This document shows positions 610 through 10,552 of a stretch of DNA of 10,552 bases, piece after piece. The DNA is from a virus (taxonomy: Duplodnaviria; Heunggongvirae; Uroviricota; Caudoviricetes). The position numbers and the translations under genes are program-made. Below the pieces are notes generated by a model. The model was not told the DNA's origin and ran no database searches. It saw only the letters and a program-made list of their open reading frames with translations. Each line of letters begins with the position of its first letter. Position 1 is the first letter of the stretch. The stretch lies in IMG/VR virus record IMGVR_UViG_2684622669_000011, one strand, 5' to 3'.

Positions 610-951
610 ATGATTACTAAAAATTTCCGACTGAATGCGCTGGCAAATAAGTATGCGTCGGCACTGTATAACCACATTACCTCCACCAGCGGCGGGGACT
701 ATTTCATGGTTGATGCGGACGGCGAGGCCGTACGTGTGGAAATCGTCAATGGAGTAAAAGGCGTTCGCAGCCTGATCGATAGCTACACACTGGCAGCCAT
801 GAAAGTGTTCTACCCGCAGTGGGAAACCGTGGGGATCGAGCTTCTTGAGCGTTGCGTCACTAAGGACGAATTGACTGACGTCGGGAGTGAGATATGGCAA
901 AGCATGGTTAATGACATGGGCGCAACTGTAGCGGGAGGTTCTCATGCGTGA
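610..951 (+). CDS. Hypothetical small protein, 113 aa, in the position held by small regulatory genes (epsilon/orf151-like) in P4-type elements.
   Basis: ATG at 610 preceded by GAGGA (598-602) at 7-nt spacing; 3' end overlaps the next ORF by 8 nt (944-951). No motif recognised. Confidence 0.65.
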   Translation: MITKNFRLNALANKYASALYNHITSTSGGDYFMVDADGEAVRVEIVNGVKGVRSLIDSYTLAAMKVFYPQWETVGIELLERCVTKDELTDVGSEIWQSMVNDMGATVAGGSHA

Positions 952-1315
952 AAATGCAGAAATGGCGCTTAGCTCCGCAATCGGAGAGCAGGTGGCAAAG
1001 ATTGCTGGTGCTGTGTGGATTCATAACCTTCATTCTACTGGTGAAGAGAAAATGGCAATTCAGACGCCAGAGGGACGCACCATTACTACATCTCTGAAGC
1101 CGTCAGATGTTTGTGATCTGATTTGCGCATTCATGTACCCAGCAATGAGGACTGTCCACGGCGATAAGTGGAAACTTGCGACAACCGCTGAATTTGATAT
1201 GTGGCTAAACAATGATGGCATGCTGACTGATTACGGAATAACCAAGTGGCAGATGCTGGTTAGCCATATCGCAAACGCTATAGACCACGTGGGGTACGGT
1301 GATGCGAAACATTGA
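944..1315 (+). CDS. Hypothetical small protein, 123 aa.
   Basis: ATG at 944 preceded by GGGAGG; stop TGA 1313-1315 overlaps the primase start, indicating translational coupling. No motif recognised. Confidence 0.65.
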   Translation: MRENAEMALSSAIGEQVAKIAGAVWIHNLHSTGEEKMAIQTPEGRTITTSLKPSDVCDLICAFMYPAMRTVHGDKWKLATTAEFDMWLNNDGMLTDYGITKWQMLVSHIANAIDHVGYGDAKH

Positions 1316-3569
1316 TCTTATCCGTCAGGTTATCAGTGCGTCTGAAAACAACTGGCCTCATGTGCTGGGCTGCCTGAACATAAATGTCCCTGACTCTCCG
1401 CGCCGTCATGCTCCCTGCCCTGCATGTGGGGGCAAAGATCGATTCCGGTTCGATGACAACGGGCGCGGTAGCTTCATCTGTAATCAGTGCGGCGCTGGTG
1501 ATGGGCTGGATTTAATTAAACGCGTAAATAACTGCGACACAACAGAGGCGGCGCTTCTTGCCGCTGATGTTCTGGGTATTGATTACCGGACAACGGAAAC
1601 ACCAGAAGCCACCAGCCAGAAACGGGAACAACTGGAATTTGATGACATGCGCAGAAAGGCTGTAAACGGCAAATCTGATTATCTGGTTGCGAAAGGGGTA
1701 GGTGATTTTACATTCCCCGTGTTGCCAGATGGATCTCTATTGCTGGCGCTGGTGGATAAATCCGGCGCAGTCACCGCAGCACAGACTATTACCTCACATG
1801 GTGAAAAAAGACTCCTGACAGGTTCGGCAAAGCGGGGGGCATATCACGCCATAAACGCACAGAAACGACCTCACAGCATCATAATTGCTGAGGGGGTGGC
1901 TACCGCCCTGTCGTGCCATTTAATTCGCCCTGACGCAATGACAGTGGCAGCAATCGACGCTGGCAACCTGTTGCCAGTAGCGGAAGTCATGCGCAGAACA
2001 TATCCACAGGCACAAATCATCATTGCCGCAGATAACGATCACCAGCAAGGAAACTCCGAAAGTGGAGGGATCAACACGGGGAAAGATGCCGCAGAGAGGG
2101 CCGCTATTTCCGTAGCTGGCTGGGTGTCTCTGCCACCGACTGACTATAAAGCCGACTGGAACGACTATCACCAACAACACGGGCTGGCGGCAGCCACAGC
2201 AGCATTTAAAGATTCGATGTACCAGCCACGGGGGAAAGGGGCGCAGGTGAAAAATCACAAACAGTCAGTCGGGGCGCTGAATGAGATCAGTTCTGGCGAG
2301 GTGTTAAGCGTTGATGAAATTGCTGTCCTCGAAGAAATCAACCGGACGTTTACGCATGTCACCATCGGCGGGAAACACAAGGTGGTGTCGCTAAAGCCTT
2401 CTCAAACCGGCGGTGTATCGCACGTTTTCGAGGATTTATCACAATTTCAGCATTATTTTCATCATAAACCGAGAGTCGCCAGAAAGCTGGCGGGATCGGC
2501 GTGGCTGTCATGGAGTGGGAAGAACTACAAGCCAGGAGGCGTAGGATTTTATCCAGTACCAGACAAATGCCCTGACGATGTTTTTAATCTGTATGAGGGG
2601 CTGGCACTGGAACCAATTGAAGGAGATTGCACGGTATACCTTAATCACCTGTTGCAGGTTGTCTGTGCCGGTAATGAGGAGGCATACCAATATCTTATCC
2701 AGTGGATGGCGCACATTATCCAAAAGCCTGATGAAAAACCGTCCGTGGCAATCGTGATGAAATCTGTCCCGGGCACAGGGAAAGGCACAACGGTTAAACC
2801 GCTGCTGCAAATACTGGGGCAGTACGCCGCCCACATTAACGGGGCGGGACATATTTCAGGGCGCTTCAATTCAATACTTGCTAACAAGCTACTGGTATTT
2901 GCTGACGAAGTGACGATCCACAAGCCGTCTGAAGCTGACAGACTTAAAGCGATTATTAGCGAACCGACGTTTAACCTTGAGCGCAAGGGAATTGATGCTG
3001 AACCAATGCCGAATTTTGCCCGGTTGATATTTGCCAGTAACAGCACACAGGTATTACAGGCAGGGATAAGAGAGCGTCGCTATCTCGTGCTTGAGCCATC
3101 TCCTGAAAAAGCACAGAGTCGGGAGTATTTTGATCGGCTGTACAGTTGGCTTAATGATGGCGGTGCCGCAAAGTTGCTTTGGCATCTTAAAGGGGTGGAT
3201 CTCTCAGGTTTTGACCCTCAACGAGCGCCACAGACCGATGCCTTACGTGAAGAAATCTTGCTGGGGCTGTCTGGCGTTGAATTGTTTCTTTATGGCGAGC
3301 TAATCAATGAACCTCCGTTTAATGGCGAAGTCCGTTTGTTTGCAAAGGATATGGTTAGTCGATTTGTAGCGTGGTCGCTTGAGCGTGGGGAAAAGCTTAA
3401 AGAGCCAGCAGCCAGATCACTACTGGGTAAATCACTTGCACAAATGGGGCTGGTGAAGCATGGAAGACCAGACCGAGGGAATGGCGTGTTCTACGAACTA
3501 CCAGAGGTCGGAGTTCTACAGGCTGCGTTTGCCCGTCTGATCGGTATGGGGGGTTATGATGTTTTTTAA
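1302..3569 (+). CDS. Primase-helicase of the phage/plasmid P4-alpha family (zinc-ribbon + Toprim primase + D5-like SF3 helicase), about 755 aa.
   Basis: Seen in the translation: zinc-ribbon CPACGG-KDRFRFDD-x9-CNQCG near the N-terminus; Toprim-like IIIAEGVATAL and IIIAADNDHQ acidic motifs; P-loop VMKSVPGTGKGT and Walker-B-like LLVFADEV. Start is either GTG 1299 (track) or ATG 1302; ATG 1302 is preferred because GGGG (1291-1294) sits 7 nt upstream. Followed immediately by iterons. Confidence 0.9.
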   Translation: MRNIDLIRQVISASENNWPHVLGCLNINVPDSPRRHAPCPACGGKDRFRFDDNGRGSFICNQCGAGDGLDLIKRVNNCDTTEAALLAADVLGIDYRTTETPEATSQKREQLEFDDMRRKAVNGKSDYLVAKGVGDFTFPVLPDGSLLLALVDKSGAVTAAQTITSHGEKRLLTGSAKRGAYHAINAQKRPHSIIIAEGVATALSCHLIRPDAMTVAAIDAGNLLPVAEVMRRTYPQAQIIIAADNDHQQGNSESGGINTGKDAAERAAISVAGWVSLPPTDYKADWNDYHQQHGLAAATAAFKDSMYQPRGKGAQVKNHKQSVGALNEISSGEVLSVDEIAVLEEINRTFTHVTIGGKHKVVSLKPSQTGGVSHVFEDLSQFQHYFHHKPRVARKLAGSAWLSWSGKNYKPGGVGFYPVPDKCPDDVFNLYEGLALEPIEGDCTVYLNHLLQVVCAGNEEAYQYLIQWMAHIIQKPDEKPSVAIVMKSVPGTGKGTTVKPLLQILGQYAAHINGAGHISGRFNSILANKLLVFADEVTIHKPSEADRLKAIISEPTFNLERKGIDAEPMPNFARLIFASNSTQVLQAGIRERRYLVLEPSPEKAQSREYFDRLYSWLNDGGAAKLLWHLKGVDLSGFDPQRAPQTDALREEILLGLSGVELFLYGELINEPPFNGEVRLFAKDMVSRFVAWSLERGEKLKEPAARSLLGKSLAQMGLVKHGRPDRGNGVFYELPEVGVLQAAFARLIGMGGYDVF

Positions 3570-3598
3570 TATAGTCTTTTTACAAGAAGATCGTTTTT

Positions 3599-3703
3599 AC
3601 CTGTACCACCTATACCACTTTGCTAATTCAGTATTAAAAACAGTGCGTTATAGTGGTACAGGTCAATATCTTACCTATACCAGACCTGTACCACCTATAC
3701 CAT
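3599..3703. repeat. Iteron-type replication origin: two near-identical 20-bp direct repeats flanking an AT-rich spacer that carries an inverted partial copy.
   Basis: ACCTGTACCACCTATACCAC at 3599-3618 and ACCTGTACCACCTATACCAT at 3684-3703 (19/20 identical); inverted GACCTGTACCAC on the minus strand at 3653-3664; partial ACCTATACCA at 3673-3682; AT-rich tract ttgctaattcagtattaaaaacag between them. Position directly 3' of the primase gene matches P4 ori/crr and PICI ori architecture. Confidence 0.6.
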
Positions 3704-3745
3704 TAACAAACGCATTTCTTCTGGCTGGCTGAGAGGAAACAACCA

Positions 3746-3976
3746 ATGATGAGCACACCATTTTACAAAGTGCGCCAGTTAGCTTCTTCCTCTGGCTGGC
3801 AGCTACGGTTTGAGGGGCGTTCAGACTGGCTACCCATTGCGGCATGGGCGAATGTTGAAATGTGTATTGACGGCGATACCGTTGAAATCATTATTCCCTG
3901 CGTGGCAAGTCGGGACGGCTGTATAGAGCCAACAGATATGGCAGCAGAAATCAGAGAGGTAAAACATGAACAATAA
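3746..3976 (+). CDS. Hypothetical small protein, 76 aa.
   Basis: ATG at 3746 preceded by GAGAGGA; stop TAA 3974-3976 overlaps the start of the next ORF (3966). Contains three Cys (C-x11-C-x6-C) but no recognisable Ogr/Delta-type zinc finger. Confidence 0.6.
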   Translation: MMSTPFYKVRQLASSSGWQLRFEGRSDWLPIAAWANVEMCIDGDTVEIIIPCVASRDGCIEPTDMAAEIREVKHEQ

Positions 3977-4703
3977 CTATTGCATACTGCAGGGAATGAC
4001 CAGAACGGAGCGCGAAGAATTAAAAAGTTTCGCTACACAGTGCGGGAATGCTGGCGACATCCAAAGTCTGGAACGCACTTTAATTATGATTGCGCACTGG
4101 ATGCGCCAGGGGCAAAGAGTTTCATTTACTGAATATGCCAGCCAGTGGACAGAGGCACAGCGCGAACGGAGCGACGGTAATCACTCAACACCCGAAATGG
4201 CGAAGCAATGGCCTTTCAGTGGTAAAAGCTGTATCAGTCCCGGTGGTTCAGATTATTACCCTGCTGGTGTGGGAGATGAGCCATGTTGTGACGAAACTGA
4301 AATCCGCCACGCAGTGACAGTAATTACCGCTGAATACCCACAATTTAACCTTGACGGACTGGCGCTCCACAACCGGAATGCGGACTGGGAAAACCCGCTT
4401 GATAACCCGTCATTTATCGTATCGGCGAAAAGCTGCCTGAGATGGATCAGAGACAACGGGATGAGTAATGCCCAGATTGAGAGCTTCCCGCAGGATAACC
4501 CCACATCTGACACGTTGAAGCATGAAGTGGAGCGATATAACCAGATAAACCACCAGCACAGTGATCACCCGCACTATATCCCCAACGGAGCATTTATTGC
4601 GGCGATGGTGGCAAGCGGCTACAAGGTTAAGCCAGCGGGAAGAATGAACGCATTTTTCAATATTTCAAAAAAGGGATTATGTGCTGCTATGGGTAAAAAT
4701 TAA
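3966..4703 (+). CDS. Hypothetical protein, 245 aa, Cys/His/Trp-containing, between the two iteron clusters.
   Basis: ATG at 3966 with an AGAGAGGT SD; translationally coupled to the 76-aa ORF; no ATPase or nuclease motif recognised; contains CCDETE and HQHSDHPHY stretches. Spurious internal ORFs on both strands (4090-4317 +, 4256-4513 -) ignored. Confidence 0.7.
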   Translation: MNNNYCILQGMTRTEREELKSFATQCGNAGDIQSLERTLIMIAHWMRQGQRVSFTEYASQWTEAQRERSDGNHSTPEMAKQWPFSGKSCISPGGSDYYPAGVGDEPCCDETEIRHAVTVITAEYPQFNLDGLALHNRNADWENPLDNPSFIVSAKSCLRWIRDNGMSNAQIESFPQDNPTSDTLKHEVERYNQINHQHSDHPHYIPNGAFIAAMVASGYKVKPAGRMNAFFNISKKGLCAAMGKN

Positions 4704-4709
4704 ATAAAT

Positions 4710-4812
4710 GGTACAGGTCTGTACAGGTGGGGAGAGGTCATTTTTACCCACCTGTACCACCTGCAGGCCGCGCCACACAAGGGTTTGTGACATGGTGGTA
4801 CAGGTGGTACAG
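4710..4812. repeat. Second iteron cluster (crr-like): the same CCTGTACCACC core in both orientations.
   Basis: GGTACAGGTCTGTACAGGTGG at 4710-4730 (inverted copies), CACCTGTACCACC at 4749-4761 (forward), GGTGGTACAGGTGGTACAG at 4794-4812 (inverted tandem). Lies about 1.1 kb from the first cluster, directly after the stop of the 245-aa gene. Confidence 0.6.
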
Positions 4813-5177
4813 CAAAAACAGCGATTTTCTTTATAAGGTATGTTTTGCTCATCTGGCAGACGGAGGTATTCGCTGCGGTTTGGCACATAGCCCAGAACAG
4901 CAAAGAGTTTTACGAGACTTTTGTAAAATCCAGTGTACAAGGGCGTGACGTTTTTGAAGGTGAGCACTACGAAATTTTCGTAGTTCAAAAAATAGCCTCT
5001 GAGATGTTGTTATGCCTGTTCAGCAAACCATCCGCATAGCTGATCGCGAATCAAATTACCAATGGAGCCAGAAGCAAGGGCAGAACTGGAAAGCGCCTGC
5101 CGTGAAGAGTAATGCGACTCCATAAATATAGTTTTTAGAGTCCATAAAAAAACTGTCAAAACCTGACATACAGAACG

Positions 5178-5210
5178 ATGCCACCAGCTACTGAACGGTG
5201 GCATTTTTTT
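5178..5210 (+). terminator. Rho-independent terminator on the + strand.
   Basis: Perfect 8-bp stem ATGCCACC (5178-5185) / GGTGGCAT (5197-5204) with an 11-nt loop, followed by a T7 run (5204-5210). On the minus strand no U-run follows the hairpin, so it is unidirectional. Confidence 0.6.
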
Positions 5211-5239
5211 GTGCTATTTGTTTCATATTTTGCAATCAC

Positions 5240-5280
5240 AATGATGAATGTTGCGTTTTATGAAACTATAATGACTGTTG
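5240..5280 (+). promoter_or_regulatory. Candidate sigma70-type promoter for the accessory operon: consensus -10 with a weak -35, possibly activator-dependent.
   Basis: Perfect TATAAT at 5267-5272, about 34 nt upstream of the ATG at 5306; the best -35 candidates (ATGAAT/GATGAA around 5243-5249) are poor. Direct repeats TGTTGCGTTTTAT (5249-5261) and TGTTGTTTTAT (5276-5286) flank the -10. No TGT-N12-ACA Ogr/Delta-type site found upstream. Confidence 0.3.
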
Positions 5281-5305
5281 TTTTATACAGTTATAAGGGG
5301 GCGTT

Positions 5306-5479
5306 ATGGCTATTTCAGTAAAGCCAGTATTGATAAGTGAGAAGCAAATGGAAGCGATAAAGAAAATTCAGGAGGAGCAGCGTAAAAAATCAGAGGTAGG
5401 AGTTGCGCCAACGATCCACGAAATTGCTCGGGGATTAATGGATAAGGCGCTGGCTTACACTTTAACTGGACGTGGGTAA
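5306..5479 (+). CDS. Small hypothetical protein, 57 aa, possibly a DNA-binding regulator; first gene of the accessory operon. Absent from the ORF track (below its length cutoff).
   Basis: ATG 5306 preceded by AGGGGG (5295-5300) at 5-nt spacing; stop TAA 5477-5479 lies 4 nt before the ATG of the next gene. Translation MAISVKPVLISEKQMEAIKKIQEEQRKKSEVGVAPTIHEIARGLMDKALAYTLTGRG has a short beta-like N-terminus followed by two predicted helices. Confidence 0.5.
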   Translation: MAISVKPVLISEKQMEAIKKIQEEQRKKSEVGVAPTIHEIARGLMDKALAYTLTGRG

Positions 5480-5483
5480 ATTT

Positions 5484-6827
5484 ATGGCTACGTGGCAACA
5501 GGGTATTAATTCTGGTGGTTTTCTGGCTGGCATCGGTACGCAAAATGAGAATGCGCCAAAGGCAAGCGACATTAACGCAACGCTTGGTCTGATCCGCGAA
5601 AACAATGAACTGGCTCGCTCAGGTGCAAATAACGTTGCTCTGACAGGTCTTCGTGGTCTGGCTGGAGTTGCTGACATTTATAAGCAGCAGCAACAGCAGG
5701 AACGTAAAGCGGCATTCCAGAAAGGTTATGCAGATGCTTATGCGTACGGTGACAGGGAGCAGATGCGTAATCTTATTACAGCATTCCCAGAAGAGTTTGA
5801 GGAAGTCCGTAAAGGGATGAGTTATGTCGATGATGCTCAAAGGGATGATTATGGCAATCTGGCGCTCAAAGCACAGGTAGCCTCATCGCTTGGTCAGGGC
5901 GCATTTGGCAGGTTCATGATGGATAATGAGCAGGAGATGCGTCGTTTAGGTATCCCTCCAGAAACTATTGCTGAAATGCAGGTTAATGACCCGCAGGGCT
6001 TCCAGCATTTCGCAGGTAATCTGGCGCTGTTTTCTCTCGGTCATGAGAAGTATTTCGATATCAAAGATCAAATGGAAGGTCGTCGACTTGAGCAAGGGCG
6101 ACTGGATGAAAGCATCCGTCAGGCTGACATGGAGAACGCGAGAGGATGGGCAAATATCCAGAACGCTCAACTAGACAGGGCTCAGCGAGCACAAATTCAC
6201 TCAGATGAGATGGGATTGAAGCTAATGGAGCTGGGGCAAAAAGGTAAGCCGTCAGCAGACTTAATTAAGGGATTAAATTCTGACATTACCAATTTTGGCA
6301 AAAATTATAACTCTGTCAGAGCGGCGGCAAACTCTCTGCAAGCCCTTAGCAAGGTAAATACTGGCGCTGCCCAACTTGGGATTATCTTCAACTACATGAA
6401 ATCTCTTGACCCGCAGTCAGTCGTTCGTGAAGGCGAACAGGTTCAGGTAATGCGGTCTGATGGCATATGGGGACAAATCAAAGGATACATAGACCAGCTT
6501 AATGCTGGAAACGGCCTGTCGCAGGAGGCAAAGGATAACATTGTTAACGCCGCAAAAATCAACGCCAATGCTATGGGGCAGCAGTTTAACCAGCAGGTTG
6601 ACGAGTATCTCGATACATATGGAGAAACTATTCCTCAGGGGCTAAGAAAAAGCCTTGAAAGAAGGAAAGCGAAGCTATTTGACGATGTTTCCGGGCAGCC
6701 TACATCACAGGCTGGCACTGGACAGGCAAAAGCGGCAACCGGAGGAATATCAGAAGGCGCAACGGCAACCAACCCTAAAACTGGTCAGAAAATCATTTAC
6801 AGGAACGGAAAATGGCAGCAAATGTAA
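5484..6827 (+). CDS. Hypothetical low-complexity protein, about 447 aa, Gln/Asn/Ala/Gly-rich and predicted largely helical; the track lists it as 451 aa from GTG 5472.
   Basis: Long ORF with a biased but coding-like composition; ATG 5484 is favoured over GTG 5472 because it sits 4 nt after the upstream stop. Contains a QQQQQ run (CAG/CAA tract 5685-5699); no P-loop or catalytic motif recognised; 3' end overlaps the next gene by 16 nt. Confidence 0.8.
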   Translation: MATWQQGINSGGFLAGIGTQNENAPKASDINATLGLIRENNELARSGANNVALTGLRGLAGVADIYKQQQQQERKAAFQKGYADAYAYGDREQMRNLITAFPEEFEEVRKGMSYVDDAQRDDYGNLALKAQVASSLGQGAFGRFMMDNEQEMRRLGIPPETIAEMQVNDPQGFQHFAGNLALFSLGHEKYFDIKDQMEGRRLEQGRLDESIRQADMENARGWANIQNAQLDRAQRAQIHSDEMGLKLMELGQKGKPSADLIKGLNSDITNFGKNYNSVRAAANSLQALSKVNTGAAQLGIIFNYMKSLDPQSVVREGEQVQVMRSDGIWGQIKGYIDQLNAGNGLSQEAKDNIVNAAKINANAMGQQFNQQVDEYLDTYGETIPQGLRKSLERRKAKLFDDVSGQPTSQAGTGQAKAATGGISEGATATNPKTGQKIIYRNGKWQQM

Positions 6828-8929
6828 TCTTACCGGAAGGTTTTGTGCTCGATGAACAACCTGATAACTCACAGTTTCCTGATAGTTCACAGCTTCCTGA
6901 TGGTTTTGTGCTTGATGCCCAACCAGAACAGCAGCAATCACCTTTGGTTTCACCAGAGGAAAATTCCAGACAGGAAAATGTTGTTAATAATGCTAACGGT
7001 TTCGACCGTTTTATGTATGGCGTTCTCAGTGGATTGATGGATGTTGGTAAAGGTGTTGGCCTGTTTCAGGATATGACACCAGAAGAGCAAGCAGCAATTC
7101 AGTCTCTACAGCAGAAGTTAGCGGCAAAACCATCAACCGCACAAGATGTTGGTGAGTTCGTTGGACAAGCAGCGCCATTTGTTAGTGGTGGTGGGATTAT
7201 TTCTCAGGTTCCCAAAGGGGCGGCAAGACTGGCTGCCGCCGCAGGGCTTGGTGCTGGAGAAGGGGCTATTGTAGCCAATGGAACAAATAGCGATGTTGCT
7301 TCCGGCGCTGCTATTGGCGCTGTGGCTGGCCCTGTAGCCGAACTTGCTGGCCCTGCAATTAATAAAATAGCTGGGAAATTAACCAAGAAGAATGTTTCTT
7401 CGATTCCAGATATTGAGGGGATTACTCCTGCCGAAGAGAAAATTCGTAAGTTATCTGCACAAGGCAACCCAAATCTTGCCTCTTCGCTTGAAGGGCTAGA
7501 TCTAAAACCTCAGAAAGAAATTGTTGAGGCTGCAAATAGGCTTCATGTTGATTCAGTTCTTCCTTCTCATTTATCAGGAAATGAGCAATACCAAGCTGTA
7601 GAGCAAGCCCTAAAGTCACGGACAGGATCAGCGTTAAAAGCTCAAGAAGATAAAGCAATAAGCGAATTAGCCTCTAGTGCTGGCAAGATAATCGATGATG
7701 TTGCTGGTGCGCCAGATGCGTTAGCTATGAGCGAAAAATATATTTATCAGATAAATAGTAGAATGGAAGCACTAAAAAACCGTAGTGATCAGTTATATAA
7801 ACGTGTTGATTCCGCTCTATCACCAAGAACAAAAGTCGAAGCAAATAACACAAGCACTATGCTGGAAAAAATCGCTGATGATTTAGGAGGGTGGGATAAT
7901 CTTGACCCAATAGAAAAGCGAGTTTTTACAGCAATAAACCCCGGCCCAGATAGCATCCTAACGTATGCAAATTTAAACAGGCAAAGGCGTTTAGTTGGTG
8001 ATGCCCTAAATAAAAAGCAGGGGCCATACAAAGATGCTGATAAAGAAGCGCTATCAAGACTATATGGAGCTTTAGCTGAAGACCAAAAATCTGTCTTATC
8101 CAATACTGGATACTTGCGAGATTTCGAAGTCGCACAACGCCTTGTAGCTATGAGAAAAAACTTAGAAAGGCAAATGGTAAATCTTCGCGGGAAAACACTT
8201 AATGGGGATATAGCGTATAAAGTAACGAATTCTCTTCAATCTATGGCAAAAGGTGATGCGAGAGGGTTTCGTGAGATTATGCAAAATACTCCATCAAGAA
8301 CATTGCGAAGGGAGCTAGTAGGAACAGCATTAAGAGATATGCTTTCCTCTGGGAAGCGTGGGGCCGACTTTAATCCATCTGGCTTTGCAGATTGGTGGCA
8401 AAACTTGCAACACAGTGGACAGCTAAAGACTTTGGCTGAACATTTGCCAAAAGAAACAATGAGCGGACTATATGATGTATACAAAGTTGCCAGAGCAATA
8501 AAAAATGCTAAAGCGCATGAAATATCTACTGGTAAGCTGAATGAGTTTGTAAACAGATTTAATCGGGTAACAGCTCCATACGAACTAGCAGCAAAACACA
8601 TTCAAAAAATAGGCACGATGGTAGGCGCTCATTTTGGATCGCTTGGAGCCATTGCTGGGGCTGATATTGGAGCAAGATTGGCGAGTAAAGCTCGATTAGC
8701 TGGTGGAGCAGGGGCGGCTGATGCTGCGGATAAATTAATTGCCTCGCCAGCCTTCCAGAGCGCAGTAAAAAATCTACACGGAAAAGCGCCTGGGCACATT
8801 GTTGATTCACGTATCAGGCGCTCCCCTCAATGGAAGAGTTTTTTTAACTCTCTTCCTGAACAGGAAAAACGGACCATCGCCAGACTGGGCATCATTACTT
8901 GGCTATCTAATGATCCAGATAATGACTAG
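6812..8929 (+). CDS. Hypothetical large protein, 705 aa, with an N-terminal tandem repeat (LPEGFVLDEQ / PDNSQF / PDSSQL / PDGFVLDAQ), two Gly/Ala-rich glycine-zipper-like segments and an AT-rich central region.
   Basis: ATG 6812 with an AGGA SD (6801-6804); overlaps the stop of the upstream gene, indicating coupling. No Walker A, HExxH or other catalytic signature seen. Gly/Ala-rich stretches at residues about 118-189 (nt 7163-7378) and 599-642 (nt 8606-8737). Stop TAG 8927-8929. Confidence 0.85.
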   Translation: MAANVILPEGFVLDEQPDNSQFPDSSQLPDGFVLDAQPEQQQSPLVSPEENSRQENVVNNANGFDRFMYGVLSGLMDVGKGVGLFQDMTPEEQAAIQSLQQKLAAKPSTAQDVGEFVGQAAPFVSGGGIISQVPKGAARLAAAAGLGAGEGAIVANGTNSDVASGAAIGAVAGPVAELAGPAINKIAGKLTKKNVSSIPDIEGITPAEEKIRKLSAQGNPNLASSLEGLDLKPQKEIVEAANRLHVDSVLPSHLSGNEQYQAVEQALKSRTGSALKAQEDKAISELASSAGKIIDDVAGAPDALAMSEKYIYQINSRMEALKNRSDQLYKRVDSALSPRTKVEANNTSTMLEKIADDLGGWDNLDPIEKRVFTAINPGPDSILTYANLNRQRRLVGDALNKKQGPYKDADKEALSRLYGALAEDQKSVLSNTGYLRDFEVAQRLVAMRKNLERQMVNLRGKTLNGDIAYKVTNSLQSMAKGDARGFREIMQNTPSRTLRRELVGTALRDMLSSGKRGADFNPSGFADWWQNLQHSGQLKTLAEHLPKETMSGLYDVYKVARAIKNAKAHEISTGKLNEFVNRFNRVTAPYELAAKHIQKIGTMVGAHFGSLGAIAGADIGARLASKARLAGGAGAADAADKLIASPAFQSAVKNLHGKAPGHIVDSRIRRSPQWKSFFNSLPEQEKRTIARLGIITWLSNDPDND
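6860..6895 (+). repeat. In-frame 18-bp tandem repeat (two units plus a partial third) inside the 5' end of the 705-aa gene.
   Basis: CCTGATAACTCACAGTTT (6860-6877) followed by CCTGATAGTTCACAGCTT (6878-6895) and CCTGATGG; bracketed by the 16-bp direct repeat GGTTTTGTGCT(C/T)GATG at 6837-6852 and 6901-6916. Confidence 0.7.
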
Positions 8930-8948
8930 TGAATGGCCACGGATGGCC

Positions 8949-9374
8949 TCAATCTTTATTCTTTGAAATAGAGTCATTGATCTTTTCGAAACACCAATGA
9001 AATCCACAAAAGAGAGCTACACCAATATAACAATACAAAACTATCAACCACCTTTCAGTGTCCGAAGGGTAAAAAACATCAATTACATAAGCAACACCAA
9101 TTGGTATTAATGCTAGTAATAACATCGACACAGGACGTACAAACTTCTGAACTATATCAATTTTATAGAACCACAAGGCGGTATGTTTAATGATATAAGT
9201 AAAGATGGCTGCGCCAATAATGGCAAAAAACACCATCGATAAAGTCGGGTATAACTTTGCGACAATTAAACCCAACAAAATAATTATAACTGCCTGCCCC
9301 CTCACACCAACCCTCCCTTTAGCTTTGTTTAGAATGGCAATCATCATATATCCAAGACATGGCATTTGGTACAT
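8949..9374 (-). CDS. Small multi-pass membrane protein (141 aa from ATG 9374, or about 118 aa from GTG 9305), convergent with the 705-aa gene.
   Basis: Translation has three to four strongly hydrophobic helices (VIIILLGLIVAKL, MVFFAIIGAAIFTYII, VSMLLLALIPIGVAYVI, WLIVLYCYIGVALFCGF). No SD before ATG 9374, but a strong AAGGGAGGG (9312-9320) precedes the in-frame GTG 9305 at 6-nt spacing. Very AT-rich. Confidence 0.6.
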   Translation of the reverse strand: MYQMPCLGYMMIAILNKAKGRVGVRGQAVIIILLGLIVAKLYPTLSMVFFAIIGAAIFTYIIKHTALWFYKIDIVQKFVRPVSMLLLALIPIGVAYVIDVFYPSDTERWLIVLYCYIGVALFCGFHWCFEKINDSISKNKD

Positions 9375-9522
9375 AGCTTGGGTCGGGATTTCAAATCCGC
9401 TCCCCGTTGATGGGGCCGTTACAGTACGCGCATATCCTCTTTATGTGAAACAGGAAGATTTTTCTGATATCACTGCCACAGCAAAACACCAATTTCGTGA
9501 CCAGTACGCGCGCGAGGGGTAT

Positions 9523-9546
9523 CAGTTGCAAAAAATTTTGCAACTG
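9523..9546. promoter_or_regulatory. Candidate operator: perfect 11-bp inverted repeat with a 2-bp spacer.
   Basis: CAGTTGCAAAA (9523-9533), spacer AA, TTTTGCAACTG (9536-9546); flanked by the 11-bp direct repeats GACCAGTACGC at 9499-9509 and 9552-9562. Lies in the non-coding region upstream of the minus-strand membrane gene. Confidence 0.5.
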
Positions 9547-9828
9547 CGTCCGACCAGTACGCACACGATGGCGGGGAGCACCATAAAACTGTTCTCTACA
9601 TAAGACAGAGTGGTGGTGATGTGTTGATTATCGGCGTATATGCGCACAGGACGCGCTATGACGATGTTTTATGCGGGTACACCAATCACATGTATCTGGT
9701 GTGATCAATCGCGTTACATGACATCTCATGTTGTGCTGGTGATTATCACGACGTTCTGAATCTGGCCTTTGCCTGATATTTTGCGACAAGTACGCGCGCG
9801 TAGCATCGACAGCATACACATTGGATAT

Positions 9829-10029
9829 TCATTTTGTGACCAATGCGATAAGTAGCGGGATAAGAATTGATAAAATCAACAGGACGATGATCCACTTTTG
9901 ATTCTCGTCCATCTTATCTGCTAGGCGACGCTCCATTCCGTGCATATCACCGCGAATGGCAATCATCTCATTGCGAACATCCGAGAAGTGGTTGGCTTGA
10001 TGTTCAATGTGTGGCGTTCTGCCTTTCAT
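9829..10029 (-). CDS. Small tail-anchored membrane protein, 66 aa: charged, predicted helical N-terminus and a single C-terminal transmembrane helix (topology like XhlA-type phage membrane proteins).
   Basis: ATG 10029 preceded by GAGGA at about 6-nt spacing; translation ends in WIIVLLILSILIPLLIALVTK after a charged segment (VRNEMIAIRGDMHGMERRLADKMDENQK). Confidence 0.65.
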   Translation of the reverse strand: MKGRTPHIEHQANHFSDVRNEMIAIRGDMHGMERRLADKMDENQKWIIVLLILSILIPLLIALVTK

Positions 10030-10108: not shown

Positions 10109-10552
10109 TTATACGCTGACCTTACAATCAATCACCGCTTTTAACTTTTCAGCATTGCTTCCCTGACGCTTCCACGCGCTGTAAATATCTTTATCCCACG
10201 CTTTACCAGCTTTTGTTTGATAGCCTGCTTCATTGATCCGTTCAGCTATCACACGCCCATTATCAAATCCCTGTTGGATGGTATCGGCAATGATCTTTAT
10301 AACTGCCGTTTCGTTATATGGTTTTGGTGGGATGTTCGGCTTTCCGGCAATAAGCGACGCAGCGGCTTTTTCCATGCGCTCCACCAGCCCAAGCATTCGT
10401 GAATCAATAGACTTTTCCGGCTGCCCCAGCTTCATGCGAATCGCATCAACAAGCCAAGAGGTTTTATCTCCTCCAGAAGCGAGAACAGACCGATTAAACT
10501 CATCCTGCAATTCAGATGGGATGCGGAACGCGATCAGATTAGATTTGCTCAT
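10109..10552 (-). CDS. Putative DNA-binding protein, 147 aa: ribbon-helix-helix-like N-terminus plus a C-terminal motif reminiscent of the recombinase-type HTH. Its start codon coincides with the last base of the window.
   Basis: N-terminus MSKSNLIAFRIPSELQDEFNRSV fits the RHH beta-strand/helix pattern; C-terminal INEAGYQTKAGKAWDKDIYSAWKR resembles the LN-x-G-x2-T-x2-G-x-W motif of serine-recombinase DNA-binding domains (from memory, not searched). The upstream region is outside the window, so the true start cannot be confirmed. Confidence 0.65.
   Translation of the reverse strand: MSKSNLIAFRIPSELQDEFNRSVLASGGDKTSWLVDAIRMKLGQPEKSIDSRMLGLVERMEKAAASLIAGKPNIPPKPYNETAVIKIIADTIQQGFDNGRVIAERINEAGYQTKAGKAWDKDIYSAWKRQGSNAEKLKAVIDCKVSV

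Follow-up and report, generated by a model that had tools for sequence, protein, structure and literature searches.

EcCIMP1, a phage-inducible chromosomal island (PICI) of Escherichia coli MP1, spans 19,963 bp, resides at the tRNA-Thr gene between proA and yagU, and depends on its own canonical alpA; its excision and transduction by the P22-like phage vB_EcoP_Kapi1 (Kapi1) have been shown, and it transfers at low frequency (Pick, Stadel & Raivio, ISME J 2025; PMC11773190). In that report the ejection genes of the island were labelled 'DNA transfer/DUF2824', and the authors guessed at a role in packaging. Here we analyzed a 10,552-nt stretch of viral DNA (IMG/VR record IMGVR_UViG_2684622669_000011, Caudoviricetes; hereafter the window), in which a three-gene operon lies downstream of a satellite-type primase. 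The two large genes of this operon encode, judging by sequence homology, known ejection proteins of P22-like phages, and the element is a further PICI of the EcCIMP1 kind; the question is what such an island gains from ejection proteins of its own. No description of PICI-encoded ejection proteins was found in the literature searched.

Work on P22 provides the second point of reference. SieA blocks DNA injection and is escaped by mutations in the C-terminal parts of gp16 and gp20; very divergent or foreign ejection proteins (E-proteins) assemble and function in P22, both in assembly and in injection; and gp7 is the conserved, probably tail-proximal, ejection protein (Leavitt et al., mBio 2024; PMC10883804).

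A sequence-only reading of the window had described both large products as unclassifiable, but both match curated families strongly (PF16928, phrog_917 and phrog_770). The 447-aa protein matched Pfam PF16928 (Inj_translocase), a family named 'DNA/protein translocase of phage P22 injectosome', with an E-value of 6.6e-73 (245.4 bits, for a cut-off of 29.7) over residues 16–223, as numbered on the 451-aa form that an alternative GTG start at 5472 would yield. It also matched phrog_917 (E 4e-132), and it aligned with Kapi1 gp20 over 447/447 residues at 74% identity and gap-free. Since Kapi1 gp20 likewise begins MATWQQG, we took the ATG at 5484 as the start. On this similarity the protein is a full-length homologue of the P22-type ejection protein gp20.

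The 705-aa protein matched phrog_6704 (E 1e-174) and, over residues 113–654, phrog_770 ('DNA transfer protein'; E 1.2e-50). The authentic gp16 of phage ST104 matches phrog_770 with an E-value of 1.3e-235, which identifies phrog_770 as the gp16 family; a direct BLASTP comparison between the 705-aa protein and ST104 gp16 gave an E-value of 0.008 only. The protein is colinear with Kapi1 gp16 at 41% identity, rising to ~97% in the first ~150 residues, and over its C-terminal 500 aa it has 63% identity to the counterpart in phages Sf101 and APC_JM3.2. Family membership and colinearity identify it as a homologue of the P22-type ejection protein gp16.

The compositional features reported earlier hold in both proteins: the predicted gp20 is high in A, G, Q and N, and gp16 carries an N-terminal tandem repeat, LP(E/D)GFVLDxQP, together with moderately hydrophobic Gly/Ala-rich stretches at residues 121–180 and 606–645. 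As the sequence-only reading had noted for the P-loop, no Walker A motif is present in the proteins of the operon. Its suggestion of a virion-associated, membrane-interacting and helper-related module agrees with the predicted gp20/gp16 homology, and its alternative of an anti-phage defence cargo corresponds to no PADLOC model. Searches of PDB sequences with gp20 and gp16 gave no match; PADLOC, Rfam and a tRNA scan gave none either, and NCBIfam returned sub-threshold hits only.

At least 80% of the window is found at 98–99% identity in 68 complete E. coli genomes. With its 10.5 kb the window spans only the primase-to-cargo part of the island, and the full set of genes was seen in the complete genomes. 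In the enterotoxigenic E. coli (ETEC) strain H10407 and in MS14385, the island is bordered by host genes and runs through an integrase, an AlpA-type helix-turn-helix protein, AntA/B, DUF4222, Ash, small open reading frames (ORFs) and the primase; these are followed by two ORFs, a small ORF, the ejection genes, three minus-strand ORFs and PerC. No capsid, tail or lysis genes are annotated in the complete islands examined, which are 98–99% identical to the window, nor are remains of a virion gene cluster (gp4, gp10, gp26, coat, portal, tailspike) annotated in any of them. Indeed, tblastn searches with Kapi1 gp4, gp10, gp26, coat and portal were negative in the PICI loci and positive in L034, a metagenomic contig of a Kapi1-like phage. 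The complete near-identical islands thus show the features by which PICIs are recognized: integrase, AlpA, primase, a length of 10–20 kb, and neither structural nor lysis genes.

The H10407 island shares with EcCIMP1 an identical AlpA (WP_000035054.1), a near-identical integrase and the same tRNA-Thr proA/yagU site. Because these are shared and capsid, tail and lysis genes are lacking, the locus is neither a P4-type slot nor a prophage remnant; the element is an EcCIMP1-like PICI, a satellite of P22-like (Lederbergvirus) phages. Experimental demonstration of helper-driven excision and transfer comes from EcCIMP1 with Kapi1, not from the island of the window. The sequence-only reading had foreseen a prophage remnant should its large proteins prove homologous to structural proteins such as ejection proteins and lie next to a structural gene cluster: the homology to ejection proteins was found, and the adjacent cluster was not, as the complete islands carry no other structural genes. 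A defective P22-like prophage was rejected for want of this adjacent virion gene cluster.

The same reading had placed the operon where P4-type satellites carry sid-delta-psu, between a P4-alpha-type primase and a cos-like motif. The primase was confirmed by Pfam and PHROG, and the reported lack of Sid, Delta, Psu and Ogr features was borne out, with no Pfam or PHROG match to any of them among the ten ORFs scanned and none annotated in the complete islands. As for the cos-like motif, no P2/P4 cos was present within 3 mismatches. A P4-like late operon was therefore rejected, in the absence of sid, delta, psu or Ogr homology and of a P2/P4 cos. The helper type demonstrated for this kind of island is a P22-like podovirus with headful packaging. 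What the locus has in common with P4 sid-delta-psu is a satellite position 3' of an alpha-type primase and a helper-directed function; there is no homology, and the two differ in the type of helper, in the virion target and in how DNA is packaged.

Closer parallels are found elsewhere. EcCIMP1 has the same backbone (int, AlpA, AntA, Ash, primase, small ORF, ejection genes and PerC) and a cargo slot headed by the same terminator, promoter and small ORF. It differs from the window in its primase, which is of the DUF927 type rather than the DUF5906 type, in its four-gene module as opposed to gp20 and gp16 without gp14 and gp7, in a gp16 of 906 aa with a lytic transglycosylase domain, and in the gene after gp16, which encodes a lipoprotein instead of a protein with four transmembrane (TM) helices. 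With P22-like phages (P22, ST104, Kapi1 and Sf101) the locus shares the protein families, the order and translational coupling of the genes, their mosaic variability and, directly after gene 16, a convergent gene for a membrane protein. Unlike in these phages, the genes of the window belong to a satellite of ~17 kb without portal, scaffold, coat, gp4, gp10, gp26 or tailspike, and in this variant also without gp14 and gp7. Capsid-forming PICIs (cf-PICIs) encode homologues of helper virion proteins and not regulators alone, and they build their own capsids and steal tails. Satellite-encoded homologues of helper virion proteins are common to both; the island of the window differs in making internal conduit proteins only and stealing the rest.

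The coordinates of the features discussed are collected in Table 1. The three plus-strand ORFs, of 57, 447 and 705 aa, are all present as first described, the small ORF and gp20 being separated by 4 nt and gp20 and gp16 overlapping by 16 nt. In Kapi1, gp16 likewise follows directly after gp20 with the same 16-nt overlap.

Table 1. Features of the 10,552-nt window, with positions counted from its first nucleotide.
Feature	Position	Strand	Basis
P4-alpha-type primase (Zn-ribbon, Toprim, DUF5906), satellite replication module	1299-3569	+	Pfam/PHROG
Iteron cluster 1 (ACCTGTACC / GGTACAGGT), putative replication origin element	3595-3702	.	repeat search
Iteron cluster 2, same 9-mer as cluster 1, ~1.1 kb away	4704-4812	.	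repeat search
Intrinsic-terminator-like hairpin, GCCACC...GGTGGC then T7	5180-5210 (stem 5187-5202)	+	5' of operon
Perfect -10 hexamer TATAAT with poor -35	5267-5272	+	read in sequence; kept in four-island alignment
Conserved small ORF, 57 aa	5306-5479	+	ORF list
gp20 homologue, 447 aa, predicted periplasmic conduit protein	5484-6827	+	PF16928, phrog_917, Kapi1 alignment
gp16 homologue, 705 aa, predicted membrane-associated DNA transfer protein	6812-8929	+	phrog_770, Kapi1 colinearity
Short inverted repeat GGCCA CGGA TGGCC between convergent gp16 and membrane-protein genes, putative terminator	8935-8948	.	sequence
131-aa protein, four predicted TM helices, convergent 20 nt after gp16	8949-9344	-	TM prediction

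Upstream of the operon, the hairpin with its T-run and the consensus -10 are both present, as had been reported. Terminator-like sites are no commoner in this region than by chance (5 found, 5.8 expected from shuffled sequences), and an alignment of four islands shows hardly any change in the hairpin, the -10 or the small ORF; the case for the two signals is thus made by this near-invariance and not by statistics. The promoter scan omitted the TATAAT because its -35 is weak, and we regard it as a candidate operon promoter, presumably activator-dependent. The leader (4690-5310) was also considered as a mimic of a phage late promoter, and this was rejected, since comparison with phage late-promoter and antitermination regions gave nothing but short unrelated matches.

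Homologues of the small ORF, of 53–61 aa, occur in islands of Escherichia, Salmonella, Serratia, Klebsiella, Raoultella and Erwinia, and sequence divergence between islands begins only at its last few codons. The 57-aa ORF is a backbone gene and marker of this PICI family, heading the cargo slot, and is not phage-derived. Its AlphaFold2 (AF2) model has a mean predicted local distance difference test score (pLDDT) of 74, with an extended N-terminus and helices at residues 12–28 and 37–53. This modelled topology is ribbon-helix-helix-like, possibly that of a regulator; topology is the sole ground for this comparison, since a Foldseek search with the 57-aa model gave no meaningful fold match. Pfam gave no match to the ORF.

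Further upstream, the iteron clusters (GGTACAGGT/ACCTGTACC) flank two unassigned ORFs, at 3746-3976 and 3966-4703; paired clusters of this sort resemble the two-site ori/crr layout of P4 replicons. At 610-1315, ORFs of 113 aa (a match to phrog_37628) and 123 aa are present in MS14385 and absent from H10407, and this pair represents an indel polymorphism 5' of the primase.

The leader and small-ORF slot is carried by 499 of 5,426 complete E. coli genomes. The small ORF is joined to gp20 in 217 genomes and to gp14 in 258, so that ~95% of the slot-bearing genomes hold ejection genes. A profile scan of genome contigs with an alignment of the gp20 N-domain found only 2 loci and gave no cross-species census; the prevalence figures come from the E. 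coli junctions and from a scan of IMG/VR. Two layouts recur. In the window, H10407, L023 and the Serratia islands, gp20 and gp16 come right after the small ORF; EcCIMP1 and MS14385 carry a four-gene module of DUF2824 (gp14), P22_gp7, gp20 and gp16, which is also present in a Leclercia island. The sequence-only reading had proposed to follow the trio of small ORF, gp20 and gp16 through related islands: it stands in H10407, L023 and Serratia, and in EcCIMP1 and MS14385 it is interrupted by gp14 and gp7. Only gp14 remains in the decayed island L021, and the E. coli island L022 has no ejection genes, the small ORF being followed at 11228-11899 by a 223-aa protein with a metalloprotease-like HEAGH motif.

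The alleles themselves vary widely. EcCIMP1 and its helper Kapi1 are 83% identical in gp14, 57% in gp7, 26% in gp20 and 24% in gp16. At the nucleotide level the window gp20 is a mosaic relative to Kapi1, with identities of 44–99% per 100 nt; within the module, window positions 6084-6383 and 6884-7183 are 94–100% identical to Kapi1, and the segments that flank them 35–50%. Island alleles are as mosaic as phage alleles. The ejection module is the only DNA that the islands share with Kapi1, save for a single match of 60 nt in the island of MS14385. The phage contig L034, with gp10 and gp26 99% and 93% identical to those of Kapi1, continues with gp14, gp7, gp20 and gp16, and its positions 651-3775 share with the PICI contigs L035 and L036 a block of 2.6–3.1 kb at 98.8–99.5% identity that includes gp16 and the membrane-protein gene that follows. 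Such near-identity shows directly that the module was recently exchanged between helper-type phages and satellites.

Within the islands, gp20 and gp16 are under purifying selection. In the Serratia islands we counted 42 synonymous and 7 non-synonymous changes in gp20 (ratio of non-synonymous to synonymous rates, dN/dS, 0.04) and 62 and 23 in gp16 (dN/dS 0.11); in Escherichia gp16 the counts were 9 and 4 (dN/dS 0.13). Direct alignment of gp20 from the window and from H10407 shows ~6 substitutions, one of which, a C-to-T change at window position 6474 (L001:20865), creates an amber codon (Q331*) in H10407. This allele accounts for 2 of the 96 E. coli records with the gp20 allele, apparently from one genome, and is the only nonsense change seen. 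Among the cluster members listed, most, including the most widespread, are full length, and shorter ones are mainly labelled partial.

In P22, sieA is convergent to gene 16 and lies 23 nt after it (P22 map). The 131-aa gene of the window shows the same geometry, that of a multi-pass membrane protein encoded convergently after gene 16, and by analogy of position it is a candidate superinfection-exclusion moron. It resembles P22 SieA (PMC10883804) in position and orientation but has no significant similarity to it and lacks the FxRYPxEAxxFNK motif, and homology to SieA was rejected on these grounds (BLASTP E 1.7); a tblastn search of 50,697 phage records gave no match in this test. The AF2 model of the protein, with a mean pLDDT of 59.6, was too poor for a fold search. 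A homologue with 41% identity occupies the same position in the Kapi1-like contig L034 and in PICIs. Other alleles are followed by envelope-targeted proteins of different kinds: a secreted protein in L023, one with an N-terminal TM anchor in Serratia, and the lipoprotein of EcCIMP1. In two PICIs with four-gene modules, gp16 is followed convergently by a 204-aa SieA homologue (L045:10985-11596 and L046:14859-15470, both on the minus strand; BLASTP E 2e-6 to P22 SieA) with the RYPGEA motif. To our knowledge, SieA homologues had previously been reported only in P22-like prophages.

Window positions 9243-9809 are 94% identical to L034. Beyond the module, a 66-aa protein with a C-terminal TM helix (9829-10029) and a 147-aa protein (10109-10552), both on the minus strand, are conserved 3' of the module in related islands, and neither matched a family. 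In the Serratia islands L006-L009 (15–19 kb), variable cargo of defence type (Abi_2, RnlA/RnlB, DprA-like) lies 3' of gp20-gp16 and before a DUF1233 gene, which suggests that an accessory hotspot adjoins the module there. The DUF1233 family recurs towards the end of other islands, in the place taken by PerC in those of E. coli.

A scan of IMG/VR with the small-ORF alignment retrieved 60 loci, in part of which the absence of capsid genes was checked. P22 ejection genes follow the small ORF in 14 of the 60. The remaining classes of slot cargo comprise a tape-measure protein that has a transglycosylase domain and is accompanied by Dit-like and baseplate-hub proteins and frequently by a TerS-like gene; a chaperone-like ORF with a tape measure of 0.9–1.2 kaa; sets of three large proteins with a transglycosylase domain, whose annotation is that of internal virion or structural proteins; and a baseplate-hub-like protein. 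Such non-P22 cargo is found in Erwinia (L013/L014), Klebsiella (L015/L016), Raoultella (L010-L012) and IMG/VR loci (L053-L098). The tape-measure proteins of these relatives occur with or without the transglycosylase domain, and TerS-like genes are present at some of the loci. All these classes of slot cargo are components of the machinery for envelope penetration and DNA delivery. It is conceivable, and we put it forward tentatively, that the small-ORF-led slot of EcCIMP1-type PICIs always holds delivery hardware matched to the helper, often with an exclusion gene, and that satellites in this way re-arm stolen virions with entry machinery of their own. In that case they would leave capsids and packaging alone and decide which cells the particles enter, evading or imposing exclusion of the SieA type, and they would be a store of entry-protein alleles on which helpers can draw.

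For the island of the window, we consider it probable (about 0.6) that virions stolen by the satellite receive conduit proteins encoded by the satellite itself, which changes the entry and exclusion specificity of these virions. Upon helper induction, the AlpA-driven programme of the island would transcribe the operon from the presumed activator-dependent promoter, and satellite gp20 and gp16 would enter helper procapsids, beside the helper alleles or in their place. In the two-gene layout they would work with gp14 and gp7 of the helper. Ejected into the next cell, gp20 and gp16 would form the distal trans-envelope conduit, that is, the periplasmic tube and the inner-membrane part, and their alleles could set the entry specificity of the particle, for instance by admitting it to lysogens from which the helper is excluded. 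The resident cell would gain a means of exclusion through the convergent membrane-protein gene, located as sieA is in P22. The two-gene layout retains exactly gp16 and gp20, which are the targets of SieA and the most variable virion proteins. Since the best recipients, cells that hold the helper, are also those most likely to exclude P22-like particles, gp16 and gp20 of its own could matter for the transfer of a satellite.

Several observations weigh against this proposal. Two SieA types excluded several E-protein sets equally, and the HK620 set alone partly escaped (PMC10883804); this makes evasion of exclusion the weakest step, and swapping alleles may buy little escape. As procapsids are assembled before the DNA is chosen, the satellite has no way of directing its proteins to its own particles alone. 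The 131-aa protein has no detectable similarity to P22 SieA, a few islands lack the module or hold decayed versions of it (L021, L022), and the authors of the EcCIMP1 study proposed packaging as the role instead (PMC11773190). That satellite E-proteins reach virions or affect transfer is what we infer from sequence, and the operon promoter and its regulation are putative.

Other explanations were weighed against the same data. Island gp20 and gp16 could serve interference or defence, as dominant-negative or mismatched subunits that spoil the conduits of P22-like progeny or incoming injection. PICIs commonly interfere with their helpers, lysogens with EcCIMP1 have added superinfection immunity against Kapi1 (PMC11773190), the module has an envelope-protein gene linked to it, and the EcCIMP1 alleles are strongly unlike those of the helper (gp20 and gp16 at 26% and 24%). 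However, induced lysogens yield the same Kapi1 titres with and without EcCIMP1 (PMC11773190), very divergent E-proteins substitute functionally in P22 (PMC10883804), and poisoned conduits would also disable the particles of the satellite itself. With no PADLOC matches, and with cytoplasmic E-proteins that have no signal peptides to reach an incoming conduit, we consider this explanation unlikely.

The near-identical tracts and blocks common to islands and phages would also be expected if the module were helper DNA acquired by recombination, in effect a prophage fragment with no role in the island, and decay is indeed seen (gp14 only in L021, nothing in L022, the amber codon in H10407). A passive relic is nonetheless quite improbable given dN/dS values of 0.04–0.13 inside the islands, the retention of an ejection gene at the junction in ~95% of slot-bearing E. 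coli genomes, most cluster members being full length, the same layout in Serratia and Leclercia, and the lack of accompanying phage structural genes. Sharing of DNA could itself be of use, if identity with the helper let the replicating island recombine into helper concatemers for headful packaging without a pac site or TerS of its own. In keeping with this, Pfam and PHROG recognized no TerS-like gene in the island type of the window, TerS-like genes do occur in relatives that hold other cargo, the ejection module is essentially the sole DNA shared with Kapi1 (the exception being the 60-nt match in MS14385), and EcCIMP1 transfers at low frequency (PMC11773190). A need for DNA homology would not, however, account for the strong selection seen on the proteins, and the gp20 and gp16 genes of EcCIMP1 have almost no nucleotide identity to those of the proven helper, which leaves such a homology handle very improbable.

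The known strategies of satellites act on capsid size, packaging specificity and capsid production. If satellites do load their own conduit proteins, the supply of these proteins would add control of cell entry. The genetic systems of EcCIMP1/Kapi1 and P22 exist and make this idea directly testable. Such control would bear on the speed at which P22-like phages change their ejection proteins, as well as on which recipients transduced DNA can reach, including superinfection-excluded lysogens in pathogens such as ETEC (H10407).

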